Shown piece after piece: positions 2,303 through 55,849 of a stretch of 64,000 nt of DNA. The position numbers were made by a program, and so were the translations under genes. Origin of the DNA: a virus; IMG/VR virus record IMGVR_UViG_3300035113_000077, positions 34,651-98,650 of that record; one strand, written 5' to 3'. Below the pieces are notes generated by a model, which was given only the letters and a program-made list of their open reading frames with translations, was not told the DNA's origin and ran no database searches. Numbering within the stretch: the first letter of the stretch is position 1; every line of letters begins with the position of its first letter.

Positions 2303-2534
2303 ACTTTTCGACCCTCACATATAATCTGCATATTTTTCTATCTTGGCATATTTTACTACACACTAAAGAATGTTTATCATACTGATCTATTTTTCCGAAA
2401 CAAACTGTTTTGTCTTTTTTGGCTTCATTATAACAACTACTACAAATACAAGTCGATGGAAAGAACTTCAAATCTTTAAAGTCTTGTTCAGAGAATTTCT
2501 CTTCACACAAAACACATTGGAAGACTTTAGTCAT
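2292..2534 (-). CDS. Cys-rich putative Zn-binding protein
   Basis: CVLC, CICSSC, CFGK..CSKIC..C. Confidence 0.55.
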   Translation of the reverse strand: MTKVFQCVLCEEKFSEQDFKDLKFFPSTCICSSCYNEAKKDKTVCFGKIDQYDKHSLVCSKICQDRKICRLYVRVEKYAS

Positions 2535-3079
2535 CTTCGTAACCAGGTATTAAAATTTACAACATCACATATTACATTTTTATGTACTTTAAATAACTTA
2601 GCTAATCTAGTTTGTGTATACTTTCCAGTAGCATATAGCTTTCTAATTAATTTAACTATTTTCCAAGTTAATTTTGCATTACCATTATTTTCACCAGTGT
2701 GATCTTTACCATACATCGGATTATTTTTACCACTTCTATTTGTAACTGTATTTCCAATTTTAACTCCATTTCTAACAGCATGTCGCATATTTTCACTACG
2801 ATTACACCACTCTAAATTCTTATAGTGGTTATCACTTTTAATTAAATTCTTGTGGTTAACATGTGGTCTTTTTCTTGTTTTTCCATCAACAAAAGTTACA
2901 GCTATTAACCTATGAACATATAATACTTTTCTTACGCCACCATCTGTTTTTGCAAGTACTTGTATATAACCAGTCTTAGTAACATACTGATTCTTTATAA
3001 CTTTGGTTACACTATTACGTATATACTTACCATTTTTAGTTGCCTCAACTTGATAGCCAGTAACTTTATACCATTTCAT
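2531..3079 (-). CDS. HNH homing endonuclease (paralog 1)
   Basis: YVHRLIA...VNHKNLIKSDNHYKNLEW, NUMOD-like NPMYGKDH, C-terminal HTH. Confidence 0.9.
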   Translation of the reverse strand: MKWYKVTGYQVEATKNGKYIRNSVTKVIKNQYVTKTGYIQVLAKTDGGVRKVLYVHRLIAVTFVDGKTRKRPHVNHKNLIKSDNHYKNLEWCNRSENMRHAVRNGVKIGNTVTNRSGKNNPMYGKDHTGENNGNAKLTWKIVKLIRKLYATGKYTQTRLAKLFKVHKNVICDVVNFNTWLRR

Positions 3080-21502: not shown

Positions 21503-24500
21503 CTATGAGTACAAGTAGCCTGCTGCCCCGCCAAATCCCCCACGTGCGCGATTGGCTCTAATATTATTTAACCAATCTTCAATGCTACCACCCATACCAC
21601 CATTACCTAATGGTGCTGGTGATGCCATAGCAGAATTAAGCCCTAGAGCAGCTAATATCTGATCCATATTTGTTAATGGAGTTCCAGATTGCAACATTTT
21701 AACTATCTGAACTAGTGCCTCTATTCTAAGTATTTCTTTGTCCGTTTGTGCTTCTTGGAGTTTTAATAACTGAGCTTCTAAATCAATTCTAGTTGTTGCC
21801 AGGTCAAATATTTGTTTTTCACTATTTACTTTGTAAGTAGTCAATGCAATGTCTTGATCCATTTGTTGAAGCTGAATATTCATCTGATTTCTTGCCTGTT
21901 GAATCTGTTGCATTTTTGTCATTGCTACTGTTCTTTGATTAACTAAAACTCCCTGAGTCATAATGTCATATTCAGTTTGAGCTTCATCTGTTAACAACTG
22001 CTTTCTATCTCTAAGTAAATCATTCAGTTTTATTGCATCTTGAATTGCCCCTTGTTCTGCTTCATTCAATGCAGTTGCCTGAGTGTCAGCAAAGTTTCTA
22101 AGACTATCAGCTAAGAACTGATTTGCCATAGCTAAGTCTTTAGCATCTCTTGCAGCTCCAGCAAATTTCTTATACTGATCCATTATATCTTTTAAGCTAC
22201 CTAACAAGCCTTGGAATTGAGTCGGAGAATTTAAAACTTTTAATTGAAGCCCAAGATCAATAAACATGGCTTCCTGTTGACGTTGTAAAGCAATAATTTG
22301 ATCATTGATAGCTTGAGCTTCTTGTTCTAATTGTGCTTTTTGTTTTTTCTTACTATGTCCTTCTTGCGAAATAACACTTTGACGTAAACTTTGTAGTTGT
22401 TGTATTCCTTGCTGAATTCCAGTTGTACCATTTGAAATAGCAGCTTGCAAATCAGCCATTTGTTTATTAACACTATTTATAAATTGAGCAGTCTGATTAT
22501 TCTTATGTCCAATAATTCCACTTAGTATTCCACCAAAAGCCGCGCCTGCAACTTGTCCGATTGGGCCAGCAAATTTGCTAAACTTACTAAACATATCTCC
22601 AATATCTCCACCAATTCCCATTCCTCCTATTGCACCACCAGCAATATCTCCGGCTTTACCATGACTAGATCCAATCATTTGAATAAAGCTTCCAACAGCT
22701 CCAACAGCCCCTTTTATTCCTTCATTAAATTTTTGCATTGAATCAGACATATCATGCCAATCAAATCCTTTGAAGGCATCTGCCAAATCAGAGAAAGCAC
22801 CACCATCTTTATCTTGGGCTGATCGTTTTGCGCGAGCGCTACCTAATTGTTCTAATATCCCACCAGCAGCTCCAACACTTGCCCATCCACCGCGAGTCAC
22901 TCCAAATTGGCCGATTAAAGAACTTAGTTGCTGAAAAATACTTCCAACATTTACCATTACGCTCTTTGACTTAAGCAATTCAATATTCATCTTCATTAAT
23001 TCTTGAGTTGCTTTAGTCATATTTCCAAGAATTTGAAACCAAAGATTAGATAAGGGCATTGTACTATGAAGTAAAGCTTGCTGTTCTTCTTTATATCTTT
23101 TTGTTGCTTCAATTTGCATTTGAACAGCATTATTGGATAATGCTACGCCACTACCACCTGACATCATTTGGGCAATAGCTTGTTGTCCCTGAAACAGCCC
23201 CATTGATCCCTGATAACGACTTTCTGAAAAACTTAATCTTGTCTGAGTTTCATTTCTTAATAGGTCAGTTAATTCTCTCTCACTTTTTATTCTAGCTTCA
23301 ATTCTTTTGTTTTCTAATTGTACTAAAGCCTCAGGTGTCTTTTTTCCATTATTATATTCTTCTTGAGCTGCAATATTTGATAGCTCTACTTCATGTTTTA
23401 TTTGAGCTTCTCGTATTGCCATGTATTCGTCGACGCTAACTGTTCTTTGCTTCAATTGATAGTCTAATAATGACTTATCGTTGGTTAGAATCTCCTGTTG
23501 CATTTTCAAATTTTCAGCAATACGCAGCTGATTCGCTTTTATCTCTGAAGTTACTCCTTGAAGATCTAGTTGCTGATTTTCTTTTGCGAATTTTTCGTTC
23601 TCAGCTAATATCTTTTCTTTAGTTTGTACATTAATTATTTTTACTTTCTCAGCAGTCTGCTGATTCAATAATTTAATTTTATCTTGTTGTTCAGCAGCAA
23701 ATGAAGCTTTATCTCCACCCTCTTCTGGTTCCTCACCACCCAGCTGAGTTATCTGTTGCCTTGCAGCTTCTTGTACTTTTTGTATTTCTAACTTCTTATA
23801 TTCTGTTAAATACTTTAGCTTAGTTTCATGATCTTGCTTATCTAGTTCTCTACTTTGATTAAGAAACGATTCTTGTGTTATTAACCCCTGATCATAAGCA
23901 ATTGTTAGAGCAGATTTCTTTGTTGCAATTGCAGCTTCTTCTTGTTTCTCTTTTAATTGTGCAACAACTTCATTATATTTAATTGTCAGTTCAGTTACTT
24001 TAGCAATACTTTTAGTATTATCTTGTAAGCGTTTATCAAGACCGCTTGTAGCAGTTTCAGCTTTTTTCAGAGCATCAGGAAATTTTTGAGCAAATAGCTC
24101 AATCAAATCATTAGTTGGTTTACCTTCGCTTTGTAGCTCTAAATAAATATCCTTCCAAGTATTATTTTTACCAAAAGTCATTCTCGAAGCTTTTTGTTTT
24201 CCATATCTTTTTTCAGCTAAAGTTCTTTGAAGATCTTCAGGAACTTTTTCTTCCATATGACTTCGAGCATCTGTACTAAATTTCAGTTGTGGTTTTCCTG
24301 CCATCATTCCTTTAGCTCGTGCCCATGCTTCCACTTCATTTCCAAAATCTTTTACTGCATTAACTCCAGCTAGTTGATTCCAACCTTCTGCAATTTTATT
24401 TACCCAACTAGCTACTTGAACTAATAGGGGTAATATTCCTTCTCCTAGAGTAAATTGCAATTGGTCAAATTGCATCTTTAGTGCAGCAGTTTCGACATTC

Positions 24501-25498
24501 CATTGATGTTGCGATTTTATAAGGTCTTCATTAACTAAAACACTATACTTATCAGCTCTATCATATAGTTCTTGAATTGCTCCACTACCTTGATTTAATA
24601 GTGGAATCATCTGATAGCCAATTCTACGTGAGAATAAATCAGCAGCTAATCTACTCTTTGTCATTCCATCCGGTAAAGTTTGAAATAAATCAGATACTCG
24701 TTTTAATATATCATTAGCTGGAAGTATATTGCCATGAGCATCTCTTAAACTAACTCCAAAAGCTTTTAATTCTTTTTCAGCTTTACTTATTCCTTGTCCC
24801 CCTCTAGAGAGTTGAAGATTCATCAACATCATAGAGCGACCCATTGTTTGAATATCTATACCAGTCGCAGCTGCTGCTAGTTTTAATTCTTGAAATTGCT
24901 TAGTAGTTACTCCAGCTCTTGAAGCAGATCGTTCTAGTTCTTCTGCCATTTTGCCAGCTTTTTCTGGCATTTCACTAATTGTCTTTACTATTTCTCCTAA
25001 TGAAGATGCTAGTTTCTCAAATATTAAAAATGCTCCTCCACCAGCTGCTCCTGCAATGATAGTGTTTAACATTCCACCACCAGTAGCAGCTCCAGAAAAA
25101 CTAGCTAATAGTTTACTAAATCCTCCACCACCTCCTGCATCTGCTTTGTCTAATGATAACTGTTTTTCTTTCAAAGAAATTAACTGTTGCTGTAGCCTTA
25201 TTTCATTTGACTTCGTTGTAAGTCTTTTTATCTGTGAAGCAGCTAAAGATTTTTCGTAGTTTGTTTCTGCTTCTGCTGCTCTTTGTTTTGCTTTTATTAA
25301 GTTAATCTGAACTGCAGTTTGTTCTTTGGTTAATCTAATTGCTTCATCATGTTGCTTCTTTGCTTCAGATGCAGACTTACTTCTTTCGCTACTAAGCATA
25401 TTACTAAGTTTTTTAACAGTGCTTTCTACACCCTTAGCATTTTCAGTAAGAGCGGATAAATCACCTTTAAACTTCAGTAATAATGTTCTAGCATCCAT
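21503..25498 (-). CDS. tail tape measure protein
   Basis: 1331 aa, helical, Ala/Gln/Lys-rich, Gly-rich hydrophobic patches; after the chaperone pair. Confidence 0.92.
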   Translation of the reverse strand: MDARTLLLKFKGDLSALTENAKGVESTVKKLSNMLSSERSKSASEAKKQHDEAIRLTKEQTAVQINLIKAKQRAAEAETNYEKSLAASQIKRLTTKSNEIRLQQQLISLKEKQLSLDKADAGGGGGFSKLLASFSGAATGGGMLNTIIAGAAGGGAFLIFEKLASSLGEIVKTISEMPEKAGKMAEELERSASRAGVTTKQFQELKLAAAATGIDIQTMGRSMMLMNLQLSRGGQGISKAEKELKAFGVSLRDAHGNILPANDILKRVSDLFQTLPDGMTKSRLAADLFSRRIGYQMIPLLNQGSGAIQELYDRADKYSVLVNEDLIKSQHQWNVETAALKMQFDQLQFTLGEGILPLLVQVASWVNKIAEGWNQLAGVNAVKDFGNEVEAWARAKGMMAGKPQLKFSTDARSHMEEKVPEDLQRTLAEKRYGKQKASRMTFGKNNTWKDIYLELQSEGKPTNDLIELFAQKFPDALKKAETATSGLDKRLQDNTKSIAKVTELTIKYNEVVAQLKEKQEEAAIATKKSALTIAYDQGLITQESFLNQSRELDKQDHETKLKYLTEYKKLEIQKVQEAARQQITQLGGEEPEEGGDKASFAAEQQDKIKLLNQQTAEKVKIINVQTKEKILAENEKFAKENQQLDLQGVTSEIKANQLRIAENLKMQQEILTNDKSLLDYQLKQRTVSVDEYMAIREAQIKHEVELSNIAAQEEYNNGKKTPEALVQLENKRIEARIKSERELTDLLRNETQTRLSFSESRYQGSMGLFQGQQAIAQMMSGGSGVALSNNAVQMQIEATKRYKEEQQALLHSTMPLSNLWFQILGNMTKATQELMKMNIELLKSKSVMVNVGSIFQQLSSLIGQFGVTRGGWASVGAAGGILEQLGSARAKRSAQDKDGGAFSDLADAFKGFDWHDMSDSMQKFNEGIKGAVGAVGSFIQMIGSSHGKAGDIAGGAIGGMGIGGDIGDMFSKFSKFAGPIGQVAGAAFGGILSGIIGHKNNQTAQFINSVNKQMADLQAAISNGTTGIQQGIQQLQSLRQSVISQEGHSKKKQKAQLEQEAQAINDQIIALQRQQEAMFIDLGLQLKVLNSPTQFQGLLGSLKDIMDQYKKFAGAARDAKDLAMANQFLADSLRNFADTQATALNEAEQGAIQDAIKLNDLLRDRKQLLTDEAQTEYDIMTQGVLVNQRTVAMTKMQQIQQARNQMNIQLQQMDQDIALTTYKVNSEKQIFDLATTRIDLEAQLLKLQEAQTDKEILRIEALVQIVKMLQSGTPLTNMDQILAALGLNSAMASPAPLGNGGMGGSIEDWLNNIRANRARGGFGGAAGYLYS

Positions 25499-31412: not shown

Positions 31413-32203
31413 TAGACTGCAATTACCTTTTGGTAAGGGGCTAACCATTTCTTCACTGTTGGATCAACAAGATCTGGAGTAAAGGTAACATGAACTTTTC
31501 CAGCATCATAAGTTTGCACTGATGTAATTCCTCCTGCTCTTGCTATAAAGTTCTTAGCTAAAGCAGCACATGCATGCTTAACTCCCTTGGGCATATTCCT
31601 AGGATCATAGCCAGAATTGTAAATGCATAAAACCTCTGTATACGATGCCATCATTTGCCCAGCTGGCACCCATACTTCTCCTACTAGATCATAGTAGTCA
31701 GTCAATGAAACGTCTAAAGCTACAAACTGTGGGGGCCCACCAAAAAATGCCGCGACTTGCAGTATGTTTGCTGCATACTGAGAATCAGGATACACTTGAG
31801 CAGCACTTTTTCTTCCATAGCTATATCTGCCACTTATTCCAACAAATGCAGATAAATTTCCATTCAACTGATTCGTAGTATTCGGTAAAAAGCCAGTATA
31901 AAAATGATTTCCTGAAACTGCATTCAATCCAGATAGAGTTAATTGAGTTGTAGTATCTAATCCAGTTAATGGAGCATATGCTGTTCTAAAGATATTTCTA
32001 GATTCTGAAATTCCAATTCTTTCTGCATAGGTGGAATACACTAAAGAACCACCACCAGTTGCATCCACTCTTCCACATTCACTATCAATCAAAGTGCTTG
32101 CTGCATCAACAATTGTCATTATATTTGGCAATTGCTTGACAGATGGCAGATCAAAAGTTGCAATCTCTGCGTCTAAAAGATATCTGGGTTGAAAATCAAC
32201 CAT
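31412..32203 (-). CDS. head-tail connector / adaptor
   Basis: DAASTLIDSECG, YNSGY...PKGVKHAC, VKKWLAPYQ (SPP1 gp15 / HK97 gp6-like pattern). Confidence 0.75.
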   Translation of the reverse strand: MVDFQPRYLLDAEIATFDLPSVKQLPNIMTIVDAASTLIDSECGRVDATGGGSLVYSTYAERIGISESRNIFRTAYAPLTGLDTTTQLTLSGLNAVSGNHFYTGFLPNTTNQLNGNLSAFVGISGRYSYGRKSAAQVYPDSQYAANILQVAAFFGGPPQFVALDVSLTDYYDLVGEVWVPAGQMMASYTEVLCIYNSGYDPRNMPKGVKHACAALAKNFIARAGGITSVQTYDAGKVHVTFTPDLVDPTVKKWLAPYQKVIAV

Positions 32204-32703
32204 TAAACACCCACTATATAAGTACTATAATTAACAATGTCATGGATTGCGTCTTTACCTACATTAAACATTTTGGTTATCTGTTTTTGAGTGTATTTGC
32301 CAGTAGCATATAACTTTCTAATTTTTCTAACTTGTTTGGGTGATAATATTCTATTACTATAAATTGGAGTTACACTCGCTCCATATTTTACGCCATTCTT
32401 TACTGCATGATCTTTGTTTCCCTTGCTAGTAAGATACTCTAAATTCTTATAATGATTATCATACTTAATTAAATTTTTGTGATTAACTTCTTTTCCTTTA
32501 GGACATTTACCATGAAATACTCGTGCAACTAATCTATGAACTTTAGCCGTTGTATTGCTACCATCTTCTTTTGTTACCATTATATACTTATAGCCATTTT
32601 TATCGTCCCATTGTGTCTTTATCTTGTTTGTTATTGTATCTATAACACAACTACCATCATTTGTAACTTTTAATCCATATCCAGGTACTTTATAAAATCT
32701 CAT
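32203..32703 (-). CDS. HNH homing endonuclease (paralog 2)
   Basis: KVHRLVA..VNHKNLIKYDNHYKNLEY; IRKLYATGKYTQ. Confidence 0.9.
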   Translation of the reverse strand: MRFYKVPGYGLKVTNDGSCVIDTITNKIKTQWDDKNGYKYIMVTKEDGSNTTAKVHRLVARVFHGKCPKGKEVNHKNLIKYDNHYKNLEYLTSKGNKDHAVKNGVKYGASVTPIYSNRILSPKQVRKIRKLYATGKYTQKQITKMFNVGKDAIHDIVNYSTYIVGV

Positions 32704-35328: not shown

Positions 35329-35648
35329 TATTTTATAGCATTAAGATGATGGCTTAAATCACCAAGAGTTAATCCACCATTTTGTTTTATTCCAGCGTTC
35401 TTAATCCCAGTATGGCTCCACTCAGGATTTCTGCCATTAGGACCATGTTCAATTGTAACTTTACCATTTCCTGAATAATGGTGAGTAGTTACTCCATGCT
35501 TAGTTTGACTACCTTCATACTTATAACCATGTTGTTCTAACTTTTCGTGCCAACCACCTCTAGGTGCCCCTTCTGGTCGTCCGGAGCCTGGGCCTCCGGC
35601 ATGGAGTGTAGCTAATGTATACAATTGAGCAGCTTCTATGCAATTCAT
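35328..35648 (-). CDS. small GGPGSGR-motif protein between portal and protease
   Basis: LHAGGPGSGRP; translationally coupled on both sides. Confidence 0.6.
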   Translation of the reverse strand: MNCIEAAQLYTLATLHAGGPGSGRPEGAPRGGWHEKLEQHGYKYEGSQTKHGVTTHHYSGNGKVTIEHGPNGRNPEWSHTGIKNAGIKQNGGLTLGDLSHHLNAIK

Positions 35649-37576
35649 TTTCTTAATGCCTTCCTATCTTCAGGATTTAGTGATCTAGGAAATTTTGATG
35701 TTGCTTGATTTACTTTCAAATCATTTGCATTTCTGTATCTAGAGCTGTAGCGCGTGTTAATTGCCTTTTCTTGCCATGTTGGCCTATGTTCAGCTTTCTT
35801 GAATTTCTGTGCTTGATCTTTTTCATCTTGCCTAGAAACTTTAGCTGGCCTAGTATGAGCTTCTCCTTCTTCATCCATTTCATCTGCAACATCGAAGAAC
35901 TGTTTCAATTGCTGAGTTAATGTCTGCAGAATTCCTGGTGATTGCTGCTCCATTTGTTGGCCAAGCTCATCTGTCTCTGGAAGCAAATTGTTTTCTTGCA
36001 GCCACTCAATATCTTCGGGTGACATATCAGCAATATCGTCAGCAGTAAATGCAGAGCCACCAATTCCCATCCCAGTTCCTGTACCTAAGCTTCCACCTCC
36101 ACCACCTCCCGGTATTCCAGTTCCCATTCCTGTTGAACCACCATAGCCTCCACCAGCTGCTGCGCCAGTCGGTGGTTTGGCAGCCATAATCATCATCTGC
36201 ATTTGCCCGAATGATAATTTGCCCCATCCACCAGGCAATGGAGGCCTGCCATCATCTTCTCTTATTTCATCTGGAACTAAAGCATTCATTTGATACTTAC
36301 GTTGCTGAATAGTAGCTTTAGTTAACTGATCTGGGTCTTCGAGGCCGATGAATACAAATTCTAAATCTTCCCATCCCAATCTACGATGCAACACTTCATA
36401 AGTGTAGGCTTCGGATAATCTAATTGCCATTGGCACAACGGCACTTAGAAAATCCTGGTCGGACATGACTTTGCCCACTGCCTTATTTACATCTTGAGTC
36501 ATGTTTAGGGAGATTGGACTAATGTCGAAGGCAGCTCCAATGATTTTAATTTGGAACTCTTGCCAATCTAATAGAAGGTCATCAGGGTTGACAGCTTTGA
36601 TATCGATTACTTCTGGCTTTGGCATATTGGCAATCAAACTAATCTTCGACTGCCCTTCTAATTCGTTTTGAATGTAGCGACGAACAGTTTGCATATTCGC
36701 ATTCTGTTGTGCCGATGTCCACCAAAGCATTGTCTTATGAATCTGATCTGCACCAGCTTTACCGGCTGCATCTTGAGATCCAAGAAAATAATTTATTGTA
36801 TTGAATGCAACTTCCATCTTGCCTAATCCAAATGGAGTTGATGATCTGCTGTTATCTCTGATATAAACTAATTCTTTATCATAGAATGCAATGATTCCAC
36901 GTTCACCCTTTAGCCCAGTCATTTGAGCATAATGTGGTTTGATGTCTGCCATCGACTCAGTCCAATCAGCATAAATTCTAATTGTACTGCCGTCTACTGG
37001 CCACATCATAATTGGTCGTTCATAGCTAGGAGTTATTCTAGGTTCGAAGCATCCATAACCACCCAATAGCAAATCTTCCAAAACTTTCTCAGAGAAAGTT
37101 CTAAAACTATCTTGACGATTTGGTCGCTTAAAACATTTCTTAGCAATACGAATTCTTTTTTCTATTTCTGGAGTCAGCTCAACTTCATCGTCTTCTCTTA
37201 TTTCCCAAGGTAAAGTCATAATGATTGAGTTCTTAATTAAGTTTATGGCTCTACGTGGAATTGGAGTCTCGCTGAAGCGACGGAGGTTGTACGGGGTGTT
37301 CTTTAGGATGGGTTGGTTCAGACGGTGCAAAGATTCCGGAAGATATGGGTACTGCCAACTTCTTCTATCTATTATATCTAGCTTTCCTGCTGTTACAGCA
37401 TTTATTCTTTCTTTATGCTGTTGAATTGTCGATGGCCATAATTCTATAGGAGTACTTTTTAATTCTTGAGCATGAGCTACAGATAAAACTTTAATTACTT
37501 CTTTAATACGCAGTCTTTTTACAATACTGGCTTTTAAATCGTTATGCCAAGCTTTTATGTAATCAGTTATTTTCAT
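35645..37576 (-). CDS. portal protein
   Basis: KRPN..DSFRTF, WPVDGSTIR, PFGLGKME, AAFDISP, PDEIR...PLPGG (HK97-type); long Gly-rich/acidic tail. Confidence 0.9.
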   Translation of the reverse strand: MKITDYIKAWHNDLKASIVKRLRIKEVIKVLSVAHAQELKSTPIELWPSTIQQHKERINAVTAGKLDIIDRRSWQYPYLPESLHRLNQPILKNTPYNLRRFSETPIPRRAINLIKNSIIMTLPWEIREDDEVELTPEIEKRIRIAKKCFKRPNRQDSFRTFSEKVLEDLLLGGYGCFEPRITPSYERPIMMWPVDGSTIRIYADWTESMADIKPHYAQMTGLKGERGIIAFYDKELVYIRDNSRSSTPFGLGKMEVAFNTINYFLGSQDAAGKAGADQIHKTMLWWTSAQQNANMQTVRRYIQNELEGQSKISLIANMPKPEVIDIKAVNPDDLLLDWQEFQIKIIGAAFDISPISLNMTQDVNKAVGKVMSDQDFLSAVVPMAIRLSEAYTYEVLHRRLGWEDLEFVFIGLEDPDQLTKATIQQRKYQMNALVPDEIREDDGRPPLPGGWGKLSFGQMQMMIMAAKPPTGAAAGGGYGGSTGMGTGIPGGGGGGSLGTGTGMGIGGSAFTADDIADMSPEDIEWLQENNLLPETDELGQQMEQQSPGILQTLTQQLKQFFDVADEMDEEGEAHTRPAKVSRQDEKDQAQKFKKAEHRPTWQEKAINTRYSSRYRNANDLKVNQATSKFPRSLNPEDRKALRK

Positions 37577-38100
37577 GCTATTAAAGATTTATCTTTCCAA
37601 GTCTCATAATTTACAATTAAATTTATTGTCCTTTGGCACACTTTAAACATCTTAGATAATTGTACTTGAGTACATTTTCCAGTTGCATATAGCTTTCTTA
37701 TTAACTTAACTTTCTTCCAATCCAATTTAGATATTCCATGATTTTCTCCTGATACATCACCTAAATTTTTTCCCGGAGAATAACCATTTCTAACTGCGTG
37801 GTGCATATTTTCACTACGAGTAATCCATTCTAAATTCTTATAATAATTATTCTGTCTATTACAGTCAATATGATTTACTTCTAATCCTTTCTTATAACCT
37901 TTACAAAATACTAGAGCAACTAATCTATGAACTCCTACTATAGTACTTTTTCCATTATCTTTTCTAACACCTAAAAACTTATAACCTCGTTGTAAATAAA
38001 GTGTTCTTAAATTCTTTGTTATATTATCTCTTACATCACCATATTTTGTAACTTCAACTTGGTAACCTGGAACTTTATACCATTTAATTCCAATAGACAT
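37573..38100 (-). CDS. HNH homing endonuclease (paralog 3)
   Basis: VHRLVA..VNHIDCNRQNNYYKNLEW; KLIRKLYATGK. Confidence 0.9.
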   Translation of the reverse strand: MSIGIKWYKVPGYQVEVTKYGDVRDNITKNLRTLYLQRGYKFLGVRKDNGKSTIVGVHRLVALVFCKGYKKGLEVNHIDCNRQNNYYKNLEWITRSENMHHAVRNGYSPGKNLGDVSGENHGISKLDWKKVKLIRKLYATGKCTQVQLSKMFKVCQRTINLIVNYETWKDKSLIA

Positions 38101-45245: not shown

Positions 45246-46547
45246 TTATCTCTCCATTTTGTCTTCTCTTATCTTCAAAAAGACCCCATTACGAACTGCC
45301 GGAAGTTTATCGCCTTTGTGCAGTCGAAGCGAATCAGTCAAACCATAGTGCTCAATTTCAACTACTAATCGCTTCAGTTCTTTTTCTGGCATCTCCCAAA
45401 ATTCAGTTCTATTTTCATCGCTTAACCCCTGACCCACTTCAGAGCGAAATTTCTTTCCATCAATTCTTCCTTCGACGATCAAAGCTCCTAGCTTACCTTT
45501 GTTTTTATGTTTGCCTTCGACTCTTCCAATCACTTTGCAATCAACATTGTCTTTGAATTTGTACTTAAGCCAGTTGCTGCTTCGTTTGAAGTCATAAGTT
45601 CCTTCAATTGGCTTTATAATTATTCCTTCTCCACCTTTCTCAATATACCTTTTGGCAATTTTCTTTATTTCTTTTACCGAGAATGTTCCAACTTCTGCCT
45701 TTGAAATTGAAACGTGTGGAGTTCCCAGAACTGCATGCTTCAAACACGATCTACGTTCCTCCCAAGGTTGTTTGCACTTTCTCTTTTCCCAATCTGTTAA
45801 GTTAAGAATATCAAATGCAACAAAATGCAATCCTTTTACTTTTTTGTTCTTGCTATGAGCACCAGAAACACTTGATCCCCATGACTTGTCTTCGCCTCTT
45901 AATTCTCCATCAACTATCCAACCAGTTCCATGTAGCCTTTTTAACTCTTCAAAAATTATCTCTGTGTTATAGATTGGTCTACCATTTCTAGAAACTGATG
46001 TTGGTTCGCCTTTCTTTGGGAAGATCAAATGACATCTAAGACCATCTAGCTTTTCCTCTATGGCAATTTCTTCTTCAATTTCTTCTTCACCCCATGTCTC
46101 AGCTAGCATAGGATAACACTTGGGAACAAATTCACCAAGATGTTTCTCGAATGACTTCAGTTGCATTCCAATTTTTATATCACGATTAAGAATTTGAATA
46201 AACCAATCAACAATATTGCAGGGTATATGCCCAACCATTGCTTCTACGTAGTCTCGTGCTTTGTCTCCAGTTATTTCTCTATTGCGAAGTTTATCCAACA
46301 TTTCTTTCCAACGAGACCAATGTTTGTCGTGAGGAGTATGACTTGGACGATATGCACCTTCTCCATCTTTCCACCTCACCCAGTAGTTCCAATACGGGTG
46401 GAAAGTGTACGTTAGCATTTCAGTTAGAAGAGCTTTTGTCTTTTCATCTTTAATCAACCTCTTCATTATTTTGTCTTTCTCTAATCTGCTATTTGTTTCT
46501 TTAATTAGAGTAAACGCATTCAAGATTAGTTCAAGTCGTGATCTCAT
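45246..46547 (-). CDS. ATP-dependent DNA ligase (T4-like)
   Basis: PMLA, EEKLDGLR, SRNG, DGEL, FDIL, EGIIIK, WLKYK, OB fold. Confidence 0.95.
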   Translation of the reverse strand: MRSRLELILNAFTLIKETNSRLEKDKIMKRLIKDEKTKALLTEMLTYTFHPYWNYWVRWKDGEGAYRPSHTPHDKHWSRWKEMLDKLRNREITGDKARDYVEAMVGHIPCNIVDWFIQILNRDIKIGMQLKSFEKHLGEFVPKCYPMLAETWGEEEIEEEIAIEEKLDGLRCHLIFPKKGEPTSVSRNGRPIYNTEIIFEELKRLHGTGWIVDGELRGEDKSWGSSVSGAHSKNKKVKGLHFVAFDILNLTDWEKRKCKQPWEERRSCLKHAVLGTPHVSISKAEVGTFSVKEIKKIAKRYIEKGGEGIIIKPIEGTYDFKRSSNWLKYKFKDNVDCKVIGRVEGKHKNKGKLGALIVEGRIDGKKFRSEVGQGLSDENRTEFWEMPEKELKRLVVEIEHYGLTDSLRLHKGDKLPAVRNGVFLKIREDKMER

Positions 46548-47343: not shown

Positions 47344-48054
47344 TTATTTAGATAGTTTTTTCCAATGCTTCACAACATTTGGGTGAGCGGCTTCTTTGTC
47401 GGCCAGTTGCTTCTCGGCCTGTTCCTTCAGCCATGGCTTCCATTCCTCCATCGCTTCTGCCAACTTACCCGGTAGATCGTATTGCGGGTAAAGAGCATCT
47501 TCCGCTTTGATTAGGATGAATGGGCCTTTTATGCCGCGAGTTCTGCGGATGAAATCGAGATCGGCGCATGAGGCTTGGATTACGGTCACGCCTAATTGGT
47601 GCGAGACGTAATTGAATGCTGCCGCTGCCGCAAGGCTGAGAGCATAGACGCAGGTTCCATAATCGTGCTGCCGGTCAACAAGCGAGGCGATGTATTCCGT
47701 TAACTGTGCCTGAGTATAGGGCCACGGCTCTTTCGTCTCTCGCATCTCCGCTTCCGTTTGCGCGGCTTCCTTCATAGAAGCAGATATCTTGCGCTGGTAC
47801 TCTTCGGCCTCTTTCTGTCGCGCCTCTTTGTATTCCGGAGAATTGCGGTAGGCTTCGGCAGCGGTTTCAAAATCGACAGACCATTTCTTCTCAAGTTGCT
47901 CTGGCGAATCTCCGGGCTGCGCTATTACTTCTGTGCCATTGAACTCAAAGCGGACTGAATCCCGCTCTGCATTGGCGCGGTCAACTGCTTCTTTGCAAGC
48001 AGCCGAAATGTGCATTCCTACGAAATTTTCTAGTGTAATCATTTTAATCTCCAC
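47344..48054 (-). CDS. hypothetical protein in a GC-rich patch
   Basis: 236-aa ORF with HDYGTCVYA motif; many G/C-ending codons. Confidence 0.65.
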   Translation of the reverse strand: MEIKMITLENFVGMHISAACKEAVDRANAERDSVRFEFNGTEVIAQPGDSPEQLEKKWSVDFETAAEAYRNSPEYKEARQKEAEEYQRKISASMKEAAQTEAEMRETKEPWPYTQAQLTEYIASLVDRQHDYGTCVYALSLAAAAAFNYVSHQLGVTVIQASCADLDFIRRTRGIKGPFILIKAEDALYPQYDLPGKLAEAMEEWKPWLKEQAEKQLADKEAAHPNVVKHWKKLSK

Positions 48055-48267
48055 TTTGCCGATTCAAATCCATTCATACTCATCACCGAATTACGATGAG
48101 CAATCAAATGCTGTACAACTGAAGTTGCTTCAGCATATGTTTTTACTATTCGATAGTAACCATCTTTGTCTTCAATTCTTATTCCACCAACAATCTTAGT
48201 TACTATTGGTTGACGATTACTCTTTGTGGCTGCCAACTTTTGAGAGCCAGCAGCCACAGCAGAGTTA

Positions 48268-49686
48268 TTAGTTGATTGAGTCGCTACGAAAGGTCGAAGC
48301 ACTAGGGTGACCTCCACGATCACCCTTTTCTTGGTTTCCACGAGCAGTAATTGATTCAAGCAGAGTGCGAACATCTTCAATTGATGTCCACGGAGCATGC
48401 AGCCTACGAAGCTCAGGACGAGTTGCACTAGTATAGAGCATATCACCACGAGTCATCAAGTGCTGAGCACCAGTCGTTCCAAGAATCGTCGAACTATCAC
48501 GATGGCTTGGGAGCCTGAATGACAAACGAGCTGGGAAGTTGGCTTTGATTGCGCCAATTACTGTTTTAACATCTGGTCTCTGCGTTGCTGCAATCACATA
48601 GATTCCAGCTGCACGAGAGCGAGCAGTAATTACTTTCAGTTTATCTGCATTGGCTTTTGCTTCACTACGACTCTGCTCCATGCCAAGGATATCAGCCAGT
48701 TCATCAATTACAATTACTATCAAAGGTAGCCTTGCATGTTCAGGAACCTTTGCATTGTACTGATGAATGTTCTGCACATCTTGTTCGCCAAGCTTATCGT
48801 AGCGAATTTGAGTTTGCTTTACACAATAGTCAAGAGCAGCCATTGTCGAATAAACATCACTGCAATAACCACCATGAACCAATCGTGGGTCACTTATAAG
48901 GTGAGGTACATCACGGAATGCTTTGAACTCCACACCTTTTGTATCACTGATAATCAACTGCAACTCTTTTGGAGTCATTGCAAAAAGCATCGAGAGAACA
49001 ATTGCTCGAATGCCAGTTGACTTTCCAGAGCCAGTCGTTCCAGCCATAAGCAAATGTGGCTGCATGGTTAGATCATCAACGTAGGGCTTTCCAGCAACAT
49101 CCATGCCAAAGTTCAAAGGAATTGGCTTGTGCCCATCTTCAGTTTCGATCTGCATGAATTCAATGATATGCTCAAGAGTATCTTTCAGTTCGATACGTTG
49201 CTTCTTCTCGTTGGCTACAAAAACACCAACAGCAGAATCACCAGGCATCATCTTCACGAGAACTGATTCACGGCCAAGAGCTACTGCAAAGTCGCCACCA
49301 AGTTGTTCAAGTTGCTTCACTTTGGTGCGACGACCTGGCTTAAAGCGATAGGTGGTTACGTAAGGCCCAACAGTTACTGGCCCAACAAAATCCATCGAAC
49401 GCCCAAGAGCAAGAGTCTTATCCAGAACAGTTTCGATTACTTGCTTTTGTTCTGGAGAACATTTTGTCATTGGATTCTTTGCTTCAGCTTTCTTCTTCTC
49501 TACTTTCGGATCTTCCATGACAAACTTTTTTCTCGGTGAAGCCGCCAACTTCACACGTTCCTGGTGTGGCTCAGTGCGATAGTCACCTTTCTTTGAGCCT
49601 TTGGTAAATTTGCATTTCTTGTTTGTCCACGCACCACACTTTGGGCAAATAACATCTTTCCAAGTTTGCTTACTATGCTTTGACAT
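48268..49686 (-). CDS. FtsK/SpoIIIE-like ATPase with N-terminal Zn finger; no TM or gamma domain
   Basis: GPYVTTY alpha domain, PHLLMAGTTGSGKS, DTKGVEF, VIDELAD, RAAGIYVIAATQRP, IKANFPARLSF, DSSTILG..GAQHL..RGDML; N-terminal CPKC-x7-C...PHQER. Confidence 0.92.
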   Translation of the reverse strand: MSKHSKQTWKDVICPKCGAWTNKKCKFTKGSKKGDYRTEPHQERVKLAASPRKKFVMEDPKVEKKKAEAKNPMTKCSPEQKQVIETVLDKTLALGRSMDFVGPVTVGPYVTTYRFKPGRRTKVKQLEQLGGDFAVALGRESVLVKMMPGDSAVGVFVANEKKQRIELKDTLEHIIEFMQIETEDGHKPIPLNFGMDVAGKPYVDDLTMQPHLLMAGTTGSGKSTGIRAIVLSMLFAMTPKELQLIISDTKGVEFKAFRDVPHLISDPRLVHGGYCSDVYSTMAALDYCVKQTQIRYDKLGEQDVQNIHQYNAKVPEHARLPLIVIVIDELADILGMEQSRSEAKANADKLKVITARSRAAGIYVIAATQRPDVKTVIGAIKANFPARLSFRLPSHRDSSTILGTTGAQHLMTRGDMLYTSATRPELRRLHAPWTSIEDVRTLLESITARGNQEKGDRGGHPSASTFRSDSIN

Positions 49687-49693
49687 TTTGTTT

Positions 49694-49709
49694 CTCCTCA
49701 AGATTAGTT
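49694..49709 (-). promoter_or_regulatory. conserved leader AACTAATCTTGAGG(A/T)G fused to the RBS (also 51068-51083, 53680-53695; variant 52795-52811)
   Basis: Repeated sequence directly before the starts of four early genes. Confidence 0.7.
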
Positions 49710-49731
49710 TTTGGTTTTTTGTTTAACAGCT

Positions 49732-50430
49732 TTAGAACTCTGTATCTCCATACTTAAAGTTCTTGTGATAAGCAAACGAATTAGGTTCTTTTCGCAAATA
49801 CTCATCTGTTGGTAACAACTTACCATTCTCAACATAAGAGCCTTCACCACCAATAAAACAATAACCCGGATCAGGTTCTTTGTATAAAGATAATTCAACA
49901 TTTTTCGTTTCCGTATCTTGCATTGCACATGCACAATAAGGAATACCTTTAAATTCGATTGTCCCCCAAACTGTCAATTCTTGATTTCCAGCTTTAATCA
50001 TTTTTTGATGCTCTTTTTCAGATCGCCAATTGTCACGACTATGACGATTCACTTTCATTTTGTGTTTACCAATTTGCAAAAATTGGTCAATCTTAACATT
50101 TTCAATTGTTGTTTTCATTTTTCCTCCTACGCAAAAATAAGGACTTTTTCAAGTCCAGTAGTCACAAATTCTACCTAAGAATATTATAGTAAAAACTCAT
50201 GATTACGTCAATGGTTATTTTTCACCCATTTTAATTGGATCAAATAGAGTATATTGATCTACCCACCCAATCCAAGACGTTGTTCCATTTTCAAATTGCT
50301 TCATCACTTTACGCTTTGGAGCTGCCATCGAATTGTTCTTTTTCATAAATACTGGTTGAATGATTAGTCTATCCATCCCATCAGCAGTTAATCGAAGCAT
50401 TGCAAATTTCTTCTCATAATCATCTGCCAT
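49732..50430 (-). CDS. two early hypothetical genes (49732-50118, 50215-50430)
   Basis: GGAGG / GGAG RBSs. Confidence 0.6.
50183..50211 (-). promoter_or_regulatory. strong sigma70-type early promoter
   Basis: TTGACG-17nt-TATAAT. Confidence 0.85.
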
Positions 50431-50439
50431 ACTTACTCC

Positions 50440-51060
50440 TTAAAGAATGTCTCCAGCACCAGCAACACTAATTGTCGCCGGCACTGAATTAGCTAGATCA
50501 TTGTTAAACCACAGCAACAGAGCATCGAAGTGATATCCACTATTAAATACTAATGGTTGGCCTGATGCTCCTTCAAATGGAATTGCAATTGGAACTGAGT
50601 GTGATGCTTGCATTTTGGACATGTGCAAAATTTCTTTCTGTCCGTTGTCGATTGCATAGAGCCACGTTACTATGCTCGTTGCATTGTTTGTCCACGGTTC
50701 CAATCCAACATTTCCACGAAGATTAACGATCGTACCTACATGAGGTACAAAAATAGGGCATCCAGAAAGCGTTGGGTCGTCGATCAATGCAACTAATCCA
50801 ATCTCCAGAGTAAATGACATCGAGTGTGGCCACATATAAACGTCACCTTGGCAATAACCAAGTTCTTTTCCATTTGCATCTTTAATGTGATGAACCCAGT
50901 GGCAATTGTCTCCACCAGTTACTGGGCCACAAGTCAAAGGAACTTCAGGGCCAATCGTTGGCGGAGCAGTTGAGCTTGCCTGCACAGATGAAACACCGCC
51001 GCAGCCAGTCATTAACATCACTGCGATCAAGATATAAGCGATTGCTGAATTGATTTTCAT
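50440..51060 (-). CDS. lipoprotein
   Basis: MKINSAIAYILIAVMLMTGC lipobox; start reset by RBS. Confidence 0.75.
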   Translation of the reverse strand: MKINSAIAYILIAVMLMTGCGGVSSVQASSTAPPTIGPEVPLTCGPVTGGDNCHWVHHIKDANGKELGYCQGDVYMWPHSMSFTLEIGLVALIDDPTLSGCPIFVPHVGTIVNLRGNVGLEPWTNNATSIVTWLYAIDNGQKEILHMSKMQASHSVPIAIPFEGASGQPLVFNSGYHFDALLLWFNNDLANSVPATISVAGAGDIL

Positions 51061-51098
51061 TTTATTTCTCCTCAAGATTAGTTTTTGTTTTTGTAGGT

Positions 51099-51680
51099 TT
51101 ACTTTACTTTAGACTTCGTCTTAACTGATCTTCCTTCAACTTTGGCTGCCAACTTTTTAAGTCGACGAAGTTCGTAGCGTGTACATTTTTTATTGTTGTC
51201 TGCAATATGAAGAAATTTCATTTCAGAAGCAGTAAACGTTTCGTCTAACTTTTCTATATCAACTGAAAGTATTTTCTTCAATATTGTTTTTGCTCTTTGA
51301 TGTAAGGGCTTTACTGTTTTCAATCCTTTCTTTTTGTGGCTCAACGTCATTTCATGTTTGCCATGGCAAGGGCGATGCACTAAAGATTTATTTCCACAAA
51401 TAGCAAAAATCAAATCTGGAGTAAATCGTTCTTTTAACACTTTGTGAGCTGTTAAATTATTCATCAAATACTTTCCAGAATTGTCACGATGCTTGCCATT
51501 GCGGTGGTGCGTAGTCAATTTCAGATTCTTCAATGGTGAATGAGTTTTGTTGCCAAATACTTTGTCTGCAAGCTTTGGATCGAGCAAAGGCAATCCACAA
51601 AACTCACAACACACAAGAGGTAGCAGAAAGTGAGCTACCTCTCGCAATGCACGAATTTCAGTTTTTGTGCTATTTCTCAT
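51099..51680 (-). CDS. degenerate HNH-like / Zn-binding protein
   Basis: CEFC...LTTHHRNGKHRDN...LVHRPCH..H. Confidence 0.55.
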   Translation of the reverse strand: MRNSTKTEIRALREVAHFLLPLVCCEFCGLPLLDPKLADKVFGNKTHSPLKNLKLTTHHRNGKHRDNSGKYLMNNLTAHKVLKERFTPDLIFAICGNKSLVHRPCHGKHEMTLSHKKKGLKTVKPLHQRAKTILKKILSVDIEKLDETFTASEMKFLHIADNNKKCTRYELRRLKKLAAKVEGRSVKTKSKVK

Positions 51681-52372: not shown

Positions 52373-53154
52373 TCATGGCTTATCCTTTATAGGAATTTCA
52401 TTCACAGGGCCAAGTAAATGAGCAAAAACTTTTCCTGTTCGTGAATTAAAACCAACACCATTCACTTTAACAAAGTTAAGAGCATCATCTTCGGATGAGG
52501 CAAATATATGAATCGTTGTTGGTTTCCAACCAGGATACAAAGTATACCATACTTCAAACTTTTTATTTTCCATGTTTAGAACCTCCAGATTCTGCCAGTA
52601 TTGTTCTGTCCACGATTGTCAGCTTTCGGAATGTACGAAGGCAACGGCTGAGCTGCCAACTTTTCACGATCAAACTGAGATGCATGAGTTACACCAGTTC
52701 TACGGCCATGGCGAACTGCATAGTTAATTCGCTGGGCATCGTAGGCCATCATCGCAACCATTGAGAACTTTGAATTTTCGTTGGTCATAATTTTCTCCAA
52801 AAGATTAGGTTGATTGTTTAGAGTGGTCTGTATAAAGAATTATACAGATTTTAATGCAATTTCTAAATCTTTTCTGACTTGCTCTTCATCTTTCACGTTT
52901 TGAAAATCTTCGAAAGAGAAACAACCATCAATGCAAGCTGAAAAATTCAGAACATTCAAAAAGTACCAACTTGCATATTCAGAATTGTTAACAATAAGAT
53001 GAGTTTGGCAACTCATCAAATTTTTTGCATGAGCAGGAACCTCATCTACTGTTAATGGAAGTGTAAAGGTTCGAAAGTAATGGCCATCAAAGTTGCCTTT
53101 GTAACAAACTGCAACATATCTACGAGTTGGCGATACAACTTTAGTTGTTAACAT
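52373..53154 (-). CDS. three small early genes (52373-52573, 52576-~52788, 52840-53154)
   Basis: GGAG / GGAGG RBSs. Confidence 0.55.
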
Positions 53155-53217: not shown

Positions 53218-53682
53218 CTAGGCCGCCAACTTCATGCCATCTGATTTCACAACCAGCTTCAGGTTGCGTTGCTTTGCCCACAAAGCAACTTGAGCTGTCT
53301 TCTGCTTTATCCGTTTTGCAACTTTGGCATCGGTGAAGCCAAGCTTCTTCACTGCATGTTTAATTGCAGAGATGCTCACTGTTTTGCCTTTGTTTTTCAG
53401 AAGCAGGTTGATCATCGTTGCACGAGTTGTCTTTCCACGAACGGCTGCCAACTTTGAACTCGATTTTGAGCTGGATGAAGATTTTGCTGAGCTGCGGTTT
53501 GTAGCTTTTTTCACAACTTCTCCTTTTAATTTTTTGATGTGGATGCAGTTTTTCCAAATTTTAAAGCCGATGCACGAACAGGTTAAACTTTTGCCCACTC
53601 GATACTGCTTGTGAACGACATCTGGATGTGAGGAGCTTTTTGCTCTACCCACTAGAACTTTTTTAAGTTTCATTTTCATCAC
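53218..53682 (-). CDS. SWIM-type Zn finger plus basic wHTH-like protein
   Basis: CSC.GF....CIH; Ser-rich linker; LLKNKGKTVSI. Confidence 0.65.
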   Translation of the reverse strand: MMKMKLKKVLVGRAKSSSHPDVVHKQYRVGKSLTCSCIGFKIWKNCIHIKKLKGEVVKKATNRSSAKSSSSSKSSSKLAAVRGKTTRATMINLLLKNKGKTVSISAIKHAVKKLGFTDAKVAKRIKQKTAQVALWAKQRNLKLVVKSDGMKLAA

Positions 53683-53713
53683 CTCAAGATTAGTTAATTG
53701 TTTTGGAAAAGTT

Positions 53714-54082: not shown

Positions 54083-55849
54083 TTAGGACACAGATTCCAT
54101 CTCTTCCTCTTCGTCTTCTACTGTTCCATATACGTGGGCTCGCCAAGTCAAGGGGTCTAGGTACCCAAGAACGATAAGTCGTGTAATGTGAGCAACACTC
54201 GTGGCAAAGACCATGTCATCAAAATGTCCTTCCATTGCTGCCGGTCTGCCCGTTTCATCATATATGAATGTAAAACACTCCTGTACGAAAGTTATGTCCC
54301 AAATTAATTCTGGATGATGCCGTACAAACCACGCCGCTTTATTGAGTAGAATTTTTCGAGTCTTATTTGTTGTTGGCCATCCTTCGAACTCTGCCCACTT
54401 CCTCTTATCGACATTCTTATCTCTTTTCCACCACTCTTTGTGTCGATAAATATTTCCGTAGCCTAGTTCTCTAGCAGCAAGAATTACTGTTCCACCATGG
54501 TTATTTCTTTCGATTGCGAGCAATGCATCATTGTAGTGCTGGCAAATTTCCACAGCATCAGCAGCTGCATCTTCAGGAGCTAATCTTGCCCGATATGCTA
54601 AACACTCTTCACCGGTTTCTCTGTCGATTAATTTGCCACATGTCCAATCACCCACTTCTGTTCCTGCCTGAATAATTCCTTTGCCCTCTGCAGGGTCCAT
54701 TCCAAAGATATAATTACGACCTCTACGTGGCTTCTGGAAAATTGTCACTTCACCATTGCGTTCGATATCTAATGGCTTATAAACTTGAAGCTCTGCAATC
54801 CTTGCTGCAAGCACTTCCTGATCAAAGAATAAACGACCAGACGTTAAGAAGCACGTTGTAGAATCTTCAGGATACTTCTCTTTGAAGTTGTGGCGTAGCG
54901 AAACCATCTTCTTTCTGCGCCATGTCATTTGCTCTAAATCTAAATTGAATAATTGCTGCTTGCGTCTTTCTTCTTCATTTAGTTCTTCTTCTGTTAAAAC
55001 ATTATCTATAATTCTATATTCATCATGCCAAAACCACGGATGGAAGTGAGCAACAAATTCACAATCTTTTCCACCTTGTTCTGCTCTTTTATATTCTTCA
55101 TAATAATATCCACCCATTCCATTAGGAGTTGATTCGATATCATGGGTTCCACCAGCAGCTAAGGCTTCCTTCACGTTGGCCATTGTCTCTTCAGGATTCC
55201 CAGGCCATCTCGCAGTTTCTGTGCAAACAAGATGTTGCAAAGTGAACCCCTGCCCTGCCTCTTCCACCTCTGCTGATTCAATATTAACTCTGGAATCAAT
55301 CTGATCGAAGATTAATTCTTTCTTTGTTGATGCTGATGTATGAAGTAAATTCTGAAGCAATTGCCTATGTAGAACATTTATTTCATCATTCCAAGGGTCT
55401 AGGCATCCAACGTATCTATGGGCTCTTTTCAGAATGCTAAAATGCATTGCTGCATAATGATGATTCTGAGATACGAGCATCCCAGTTGTTCCTGGTTCTA
55501 AAAACGATGGAAGATATAAACGAGTATTAATAAAGAACGTGGTATATCCAGCTTGGCGAGGCTTATTGCAGATATTCTTTAGCCCCATCTTCTTATCTAA
55601 ATCACGTTGGATGCGATTAAATTTGAAGGGAACTAAACGACGATTCCAGTGTGCTGTTGGAAGAACTTGAACTGTATCTGGTTCGGGGTTCTTGCGAAGA
55701 ATCCAAAGAAGATTTTGAGCTACATACTTACGACCATAAACTCGATACATCGCTTGAAGAGCTTCAAGCTGCATTCGAACAATGCCTTGATCTGGGTCAC
55801 CTAATTTTCTGCCTTTTATTAGAGTTAATGGCACACAATAATTCCTCAA
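54083..55849 (-). CDS. terL: terminase large subunit
   Basis: KPRQAGYTT, VCTETARW, IESTPNG, GMDPAEG, IERNNHG, HFDDMVFA. Confidence 0.92.
   Translation of the reverse strand: MRNYCVPLTLIKGRKLGDPDQGIVRMQLEALQAMYRVYGRKYVAQNLLWILRKNPEPDTVQVLPTAHWNRRLVPFKFNRIQRDLDKKMGLKNICNKPRQAGYTTFFINTRLYLPSFLEPGTTGMLVSQNHHYAAMHFSILKRAHRYVGCLDPWNDEINVLHRQLLQNLLHTSASTKKELIFDQIDSRVNIESAEVEEAGQGFTLQHLVCTETARWPGNPEETMANVKEALAAGGTHDIESTPNGMGGYYYEEYKRAEQGGKDCEFVAHFHPWFWHDEYRIIDNVLTEEELNEEERRKQQLFNLDLEQMTWRRKKMVSLRHNFKEKYPEDSTTCFLTSGRLFFDQEVLAARIAELQVYKPLDIERNGEVTIFQKPRRGRNYIFGMDPAEGKGIIQAGTEVGDWTCGKLIDRETGEECLAYRARLAPEDAAADAVEICQHYNDALLAIERNNHGGTVILAARELGYGNIYRHKEWWKRDKNVDKRKWAEFEGWPTTNKTRKILLNKAAWFVRHHPELIWDITFVQECFTFIYDETGRPAAMEGHFDDMVFATSVAHITRLIVLGYLDPLTWRAHVYGTVEDEEEEMESVS

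Follow-up and report, generated by a model that had tools for sequence, protein, structure and literature searches.

Background

What a soluble FtsK-like DNA pump does in a phage, and what brings it to its DNA, is the question raised by a gene at positions 48268..49686 (minus strand) of a 64,000-nucleotide stretch of viral DNA. This stretch, positions 34,651 to 98,650 of the IMG/VR record IMGVR_UViG_3300035113_000077, is referred to as the window, and coordinates are those of the window unless stated otherwise. The gene, here called ftsK, begins with an ATG at 49686 on the minus strand, preceded by a GAGGAG ribosome-binding site, and ends with a stop codon at 48268-48270. Its product of 472 amino acids (aa), to which database entry P0002 is identical, is a translocase-like protein in which a zinc finger precedes an FtsK motor. 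In our assessment the protein is a cytoplasmic translocase of double-stranded DNA (dsDNA), serving phage DNA metabolism and tethered to DNA by its finger, with a probability of roughly 0.55.

Motors of the FtsK type rank among the fastest known DNA pumps. To our knowledge, how such a motor is directed has been worked out only for the gamma domain, with its FtsK orienting polar sequences (KOPS) and SpoIIIE recognition sequences (SRS), and for TraB; soluble phage FtsK proteins are common in databases, and we know of none with an assigned role. The family described here offers a compact, naturally soluble motor of 472 aa together with a candidate targeting domain and a candidate cis motif, and the function and loading of phage FtsK could thus be addressed in vitro without the host. 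What could lend this protein importance is a single feature, its possible coupling to a conserved polar motif.

Results and discussion

Architecture of the motor

Two Pfam domains make up the motor, namely FtsK_alpha (PF17854) at residues 74-157 (41.5 bits against a cut-off of 22.9, E = 1.6e-10) and FtsK_SpoIIIE (PF01580) at residues 181-372 (122.5 bits against a cut-off of 24), and in PHROGs the protein falls into phrog_1358, FtsK/SpoIIIE-like (E = 6e-71). Residues 75-451 match residues 85-468 of the crystallised alpha/beta construct of Pseudomonas aeruginosa FtsK (2IUU; phmmer, E = 2.5e-57), an alignment which also covers the alpha domain (49216..49467, minus strand). Since it stops at residue 451, the motor ends near that position and just 21 residues are left. 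The beta domain, a RecA-like ATPase at residues 181-451 (48334..49146, minus strand), carries a Walker A motif (GTTGSGKS at 216), a Walker B motif (VIVIDE at 324), TQRP at 368 and the arginine finger R387. In an alignment of 29 relatives, K222, D328/E329, Q369/R370 and R387 are invariant, and they align with their counterparts in 2IUU.

An AlphaFold2 (AF2) model built on the same 29 relatives has a mean predicted local distance difference test (pLDDT) score of 84.7 and matches the Escherichia coli FtsK motor 2IUS with a target-normalised template modelling (TM) score of 0.85, a root-mean-square deviation of 2.4 A and E = 3e-34. Disorder is predicted at residues 52-68, within a basic linker (residues 52-73; 49468..49533, minus strand; pLDDT 36-44 over 52-68) whose length varies among relatives, and at residues 459-472 (pLDDT below 50), within a 21-residue C-terminal tail which ends in ...RSDSIN (48271..48333, minus strand). 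A protein with these residues and this fold would be expected to form a hexameric ring that translocates dsDNA with ATP.

Neither a membrane anchor nor a gamma domain accompanies the motor. The search for a membrane helix found none: the highest Kyte-Doolittle mean over 19 residues, 1.58, falls on the Walker B core strand, and the N-terminus is basic and hydrophilic. FtsK_gamma (PF09397) matches neither the protein nor any other part of the 98,650-bp record, as judged by a genome search that gave a signal in 12 of 14 control genomes. A gamma domain encoded separately, in an open reading frame (ORF) overlapping the 3' end of ftsK (48039-48449), was considered and ruled out, as this frame matches no family. 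An earlier reading of the window made without database searches, hereafter the sequence-only reading, had described a soluble motor with an intact alpha/beta core, no membrane anchor and an end about 25 aa after the motor that leaves out gamma; all of this holds, the tail being slightly shorter than stated.

Cellular FtsK and SpoIIIE (2IUS, 2IUU, 6T8B) share the alpha/beta core, the Walker motifs, TQRP and the arginine finger with the window protein at 31-33% identity, but they have in addition a membrane domain, a long linker and the gamma winged helix, which reads KOPS or SRS and activates XerD, whereas the window protein is phage-encoded and adds an N-terminal zinc finger. With anchor and gamma both missing, it can therefore have neither KOPS guidance nor XerD activation as in cellular FtsK.

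As a side observation on the tail, many relatives finish on a pattern [KR]-x-[ST]-[VI]-[NQ] (...SIN, ...KASVN, ...KTTIQ, ...RKVN; window residues 467-472), which may be a short docking motif for a partner.

The zinc finger

Residues 10-51 (49534..49659, minus strand) form a CCCH zinc finger, C14-x2-C17-x7-C25-x15-H41-x2-R44, which belongs to the Pfam family PF24623 (Phage_zn_bind_8). It scores 23.8 bits on the protein, against a cut-off of 24, and 27.8 bits in a six-frame search of the genome, in which it is the sole PF24623 domain. The four ligands C14, C17, C25 and H41 are present in all 29 full-length relatives aligned (39-82% identity), including ones not flagged by Pfam, and R44 is nearly invariant; the ligands are likewise invariant across 33 finger proteins. 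The zinc finger that the sequence-only reading had placed ahead of the motor is thus present. The finger and linker region is basic, with an isoelectric point of 9.9.

A profile of the finger, made from the window and two related loci, was searched against 1.84 billion representative proteins and returned 66 proteins at E <=0.001, 63 of the 65 scanned matching PF24623. They share with the window finger the pattern C-P-x-C ... C ... (P)H-x-x-R-x-x-L-A, within a common core V-x-C-P-x-C-G ... C ... G ... (P)H-x-x-R-x-x-L-A. Unlike the window protein, nearly all of them are stand-alone or tandem fingers of 52-300 aa without a motor; a few also bear helix-turn-helix or sigma-70 region 4 domains, and only one of the 65 representatives carries an FtsK motor. 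This distribution, mostly in stand-alone or tandem fingers and hardly ever with the motor, marks the finger as a mobile module of phages, which a single lineage has fused to FtsK.

Modelled alone by AF2, the finger reaches a pLDDT of 82. Neither VIA-align (no Z >=2) nor Foldseek matches the model to a PDB entry, which for so very small a domain is no sign of a new fold, and the protein atlas holds no usable match for it. No record of the phage collection matches the first 50 residues of the protein.

Family and loss of gamma

About 60 database clusters with proteins of 450-528 aa span at least 93% of the window protein at 38-82% identity, on contigs of up to 124 kb, and many of these metagenomic clusters already carry the annotation PF24623+PF17854+PF01580. 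The next tier of relatives, of about 360-400 aa, matches only residues ~75-450, that is, the alpha/beta motor without finger or gamma. PF09397 is found in 0 of the 120 best relatives listed, and the commonest phage form consists of alpha/beta alone (about 370 aa). Among 132 FtsK-like ORFs in the viral and metagenome contig loci that were fetched, the finger occurs in two (L001 and L002). These were also the only two finger-bearing loci recovered by the alignment-based scan of viral contigs, a scan with the single sequence having found no match; in the metagenome scan, relatives reach at most 43% identity among the matches listed. The scan of bacterial genomes found no close copy, the best match having 36% identity, and gave no clue to the host.

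Judged by these relatives, FtsK proteins of this phage clade generally have neither gamma nor anchor, and the finger was added to such a motor. The loss of gamma is older than the gain of the finger, because all 120 relatives listed are without gamma and most of them are also fingerless. Furthermore, the finger lies N-terminally, on the alpha side of the motor, in the place taken by linker and anchor in cellular FtsK, and not at the gamma position. The description of gamma as replaced by the finger, given in the sequence-only reading, is therefore misleading. The same reading had suggested that the system may be undescribed; the finger is PF24623, the three-domain architecture has been precomputed for dozens of proteins, and PHROG 1358 already names phage FtsK/SpoIIIE-like proteins. 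No paper on this combination of finger and motor, or on PF24623, came up in the literature search; the architecture is already catalogued in databases, yet unstudied.

Phage-encoded motors without an anchor are known more widely (PHROG 1358 and 3551), for instance in Mycobacterium phage Omega (gp203), in other Cluster J phages and in many Bacillus phages. The Cluster J motor matches window residues 115-461 at 33% identity. FtsK-like proteins of Cluster J mycobacteriophages were described in 2013 as having no membrane domain and a divergent, gamma-like C-terminal domain of ~90 residues (PMC3706429). They keep this gamma-like domain, whereas the window protein has a tail of 21 residues and an N-terminal finger.

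A probable translocase for phage DNA metabolism

Siphophages of a soil and rhizosphere lineage, with genomes of ~100-125 kb, encode the protein as a conserved component. Two relatives encode a finger-FtsK that is 49-56% identical to that of the window, namely G004 (locus L001), a 64-kb fragment, and G001 (locus L002), complete at 119 kb. The gene order terS, terL, small variable ORFs, finger-ftsK, ..., a 298-aa gene and a GT9-like gene is kept in both, and finger-ftsK stands at a conserved site 3-5 kb downstream of terL. Two further relatives were sought through the similarity of their large terminase subunit (TerL): G002, complete at 120.7 kb with terminal repeats and a TerL 63% identical to that of the window, has neither ftsK nor the repeated motif described below, and G003 is a fragment of 55.5 kb, 46% complete, with the portal and capsid genes outside it.

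The reading that we favour starts from the motor. A ring-forming, ATP-driven pump of the FtsK/SpoIIIE alpha/beta type would act on DNA inside the infected cell, and its substrate would most likely be the replicating or recombining DNA of the phage itself, not the division septum. The finger, carried at the alpha face on a flexible basic linker of ~20 residues, would most likely tether the ring to DNA or load it there. The evidence for the process served comes from fingerless soil-phage FtsK proteins of ~370 aa (P0063-P0121; loci L003-L080), which have a motor 40-48% identical to that of the window and likewise possess neither anchor nor gamma. Of 79 viral loci, about 40 place these relatives in a conserved gene module with the order VWA protein, FtsK, an unknown gene, a PD-(D/E)XK exonuclease, a Sak4-like annealing protein and DUF669, which points to a link between soluble phage FtsK and DNA recombination or replication. 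In the window itself, the ATP-dependent DNA ligase gene 1.7 kb downstream of ftsK fits this context.

Several observations weigh against this explanation. The module context comes from relatives which have no finger, are in that context only 30-45% identical and belong to much smaller phages (~40-60 kb), in which the gene does not lie downstream of terL. The immediate neighbours of ftsK in the window have no function recognisable by family searches. Pfam itself rates DNA binding by PF24623 as no more than 'putative', and no solved structure related to the finger was found. Finally, three phages have the gene and a repeat array side by side and a fourth lacks both, which fits better with a finger that reads the motif.

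The same relatives bear on the possibility that the soluble motor acts on the host, working on its chromosome or disturbing host FtsK, segregation and division, for example if it stripped nucleoid proteins or formed mixed or competing rings. The category in which PHROG files phage FtsK/SpoIIIE-like proteins is 'moron, auxiliary metabolic gene and host takeover', and the gene lies in a block of small ORFans behind sigma-70-like promoters, as is typical of early takeover regions. However, the PHROG category is a label and not a test, the fingerless relatives sit in recombination modules, and the motor shares only ~31-33% identity with cellular FtsK, 36% being the best value in bacterial genomes. 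With such low identity and no close bacterial relative, mixed rings are unlikely, and we consider a role in host takeover improbable.

The polar 12-mer array

Around ftsK, the 12-mer AAAGTTGGCAGC occurs in eight exact copies on the coding (minus) strand between 43529 and 54083 (plus-strand starts 43529, 48229, 51145, 52252, 52652, 53444, 53724 and 54072) and in none on the other strand, against 0.04 copies expected under a third-order Markov model. The polar 12-mers already noticed in the sequence-only reading are therefore real. Variants of the form GAAGTTGGCGGC lie at 53230 and at 49541-49552, the latter inside ftsK. One exact copy follows the ftsK stop codon by 30 nt, and the first copy overlaps the stop codon of terL. 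The spacing of the 12-bp sites ranges from 0.3 to 4.7 kb, and the array is local (~10 kb), unlike the genome-wide KOPS.

Close variants of the motif recur in the two relatives with a finger-FtsK. In G001, nine of nine copies of AAGTTGGCAC lie within 12 kb around ftsK, and in locus L001 of G004, ftsK is flanked by seven copies of TTGGCACC, six of which are TTGGCACCA, several being intergenic and 20-45 nt before start codons. Most copies in the window are read as K-L-A-A when translated. The core AAAGTTGGCACC of G001 is read in all three frames, one copy coding K-V-G-T at the C-terminus of FtsK, which led to the rejection of a peptide motif and places the signal in the nucleic acid. Two promoter readings were likewise rejected: the TGGCA core resembles a sigma-54 -24 element, but no -12 TTGC follows, and TTGGCA as a sigma-70 -35 element has no -10 at 16-18 nt.

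The array suggests an alternative, with AAAGTTGGCA(G/C)C as the polar motif that the finger would read and the ~10-kb array as a cis loading zone that would fix the direction of the pump; possible uses lie in reeling in or organising the genome, in clearing proteins ahead of replication or packaging, or in loop formation. Apart from the excess of copies and their restriction to one strand, it can draw on the preservation of the core at the DNA level, in different frames, among relatives whose FtsK is only ~50% identical, on the clustering of all G001 copies around ftsK, and on the region itself, where no putative DNA-binding domain other than the finger could be recognised among the small ORFs. 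The array is found in all three finger-FtsK phages examined, and the complete G002 lacks both gene and motif. There is also a precedent. TraB of Streptomyces plasmids such as pSVH1 is an FtsK-like dsDNA translocase with clt direct repeats beside its own gene; it is membrane-associated, reads 8-bp repeats via a C-terminal winged helix and serves conjugation. The likeness serves as a working model only, since in the window the candidate reader is an N-terminal finger and the 12-mers extend over 10 kb. FtsK-gamma with KOPS would be a second parallel, with another reader domain placed on the opposite face of the motor. Other features of KOPS- or clt-type systems are not found here: there is no winged helix, the motif has 12 bp, and its distribution shows neither a genome-wide skew nor a tight cluster.

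The suggested tie between finger-FtsK and the 12-mers agrees with this co-occurrence but is weak. Three genomes have both, one has neither (G002) and one is uninformative (G003), a comparison confounded by shared descent. The three positive genomes belong effectively to one lineage, in which the motif is shared by descent, and therefore amount to a single observation. The same pattern of presence and absence is seen for DpdA, for genes of 184, 273 and 213 aa and for a family of HNH-like paralogues. G003, despite being only 46% complete, has three copies right after terL, one of them ~45 nt past the terL stop codon, whereas ftsK is missing from that gap. A single orientation means little on its own where all genes lie on one strand, and polar dispersed 9-mers with at least seven copies occur in 5 of 78 fingerless loci. 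Sites also favour gene junctions, about half of them being found at ORF 3' ends or no more than ~90 nt from the start of the following gene. On account of this placement, together with the intergenic copies before start codons in L001, the 12-mers are most likely a separate gene-junction signal, regulatory or recombinational, of a hypervariable region of small ORFs.

That the finger-FtsK and its co-oriented array form a previously unrecognised phage system for sequence-directed translocation is accordingly a tentative idea, which we regard as rather unlikely. If true, directional loading would have evolved independently for a third time, after gamma with KOPS-SRS and TraB with clt. If the finger does not read the motif, the protein is one more accessory enzyme of DNA metabolism in an uncultured lineage of soil phages.

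The position of gene and array next to terL also brings up an accessory part in entry or packaging, in which the motor, expressed from the DNA that enters first, pulls in the rest of the genome or assists the terminase, the gene being located between terL and portal. Its conserved site 3-5 kb downstream of terL would suit such a part, as would the 12-mer on the terL stop codon and the G003 copy close behind it. However, a soluble motor without an anchor in the membrane or portal cannot alone pull DNA through the envelope. TerL (588 aa; 54083-55849) and portal (35645-37576) are both complete, and the argument of the sequence-only reading that a phage with its own TerL is unlikely to need this motor for packaging remains sound. 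The record is a trimmed sequence that IMG/VR classes as a provirus and CheckV estimates to be 83% complete, and the terminal repeats of G002 are 26 kb away from terL. Since this complete close relative is without the gene, ftsK is not essential for entry or packaging in the lineage, and we consider such a function highly improbable.

The phage and its relatives

The record is a single contig of 98,650 bp with 35% G+C, and all its recognised genes lie on one strand. Besides TerL and portal they include the tape measure gene (21503-25498), helicases and an ATP-dependent DNA ligase (45246-46547), located 1.7 kb downstream of ftsK. No close cultured phage was found, as megablast gave no match and TerL is at most 26% identical to that of any cultured phage. 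The public sequencing runs in which the stretch is present are all rhizosphere or soil metagenomes, and no RNA datasets are listed among them.

Some features of the relatives deserve mention on their own. The TerL homologue of G002 (L161:8777-11467) has 896 aa against 588 aa in the window, which suggests an inserted element, possibly an intein. In G003 (L258-L260, ~21.3-26.5 kb), tail genes begin 3 kb after terL with no portal or capsid genes between, unlike the other four genomes, and this layout is either that of a rearranged genome or a misassembly. Four paralogous genes of ~170-180 aa (window 37573-38100, 32203-32703 and 2531-3079, and genome 22050-22577) all match one locus in G001 and one in G004, and none matches G002; the set looks like a mobile gene family, perhaps of the HNH-like type.

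Local gene neighbourhood

Upstream of ftsK lies an ORF of 128 aa with no recognised function (49732..50118, minus strand), and upstream of that a sigma-70-like promoter, TTGACG-17-TATAAT, which matches 11 of 12 consensus positions (50183..50211, minus strand). The near-consensus element reported in the sequence-only reading is therefore there, and its description as early is conjectural; with 31 promoter-like sites in the region against 36.8 expected from shuffled sequence, there is no excess of such sites. About 27 nt after the promoter-like site, in the 5' untranslated region, lies a hairpin with a run of T (GGACTTGAAAAAGTCC TTATTTTT; 50141-50156, minus strand). The layout of promoter and hairpin (50141-50211) resembles the promoter-early stem-loop cassettes of hyperplastic regions of the T4 type. 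A search for Rfam families between 42 and 57 kb found none.

The intergenic junction that precedes ftsK (49687..49731, minus strand) contains the ribosome-binding site (ACTAATCTTGAGGAGAAAcAAA-ATG). A junction sequence of ~45 nt is common to three starts, those of ftsK and of the genes at 51060 and 53673 (49687-49731, 51061-51100 and 53674-53712, minus strand), with the shared pattern TCTRAAGt ... aaaaACTAATCTTGAGG(A/T)G ... ATG, and it looks like a repeated cassette for translation initiation or a linker. On the other side of ftsK, an open frame of ~73 codons after the stop codon (48039-48260, minus strand) contains a copy of the 12-mer and matches no family. It has no convincing start or ribosome-binding site, the candidates being a GTG 8 nt after the stop codon and an ATT after GGTGGA.

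Contigs of related strains from soil and rhizosphere metagenomes, which are of low depth, were compared at 80% likeness and call for caution, retain ftsK and terL, while small ORFs are skipped or replaced at gene boundaries. The swapped stretches correspond to window positions 49721-50134, 51191-51363, 52376-52577 and 52851-53152, and one low-depth contig seems, on weak evidence, to skip the 128-aa ORF (joint 49721->50134). The region of small ORFs around ftsK thus behaves as a hypervariable zone of cassette swapping.

A further short sequence, TCTGTATAATA, similar to an extended -10 element and distinct from the GTTGGCACC motif, is present in 10-13 copies on the coding strand of G001 (L241-L246) and in four copies in G004 (L254-L257), where it probably marks the promoters of these phages.

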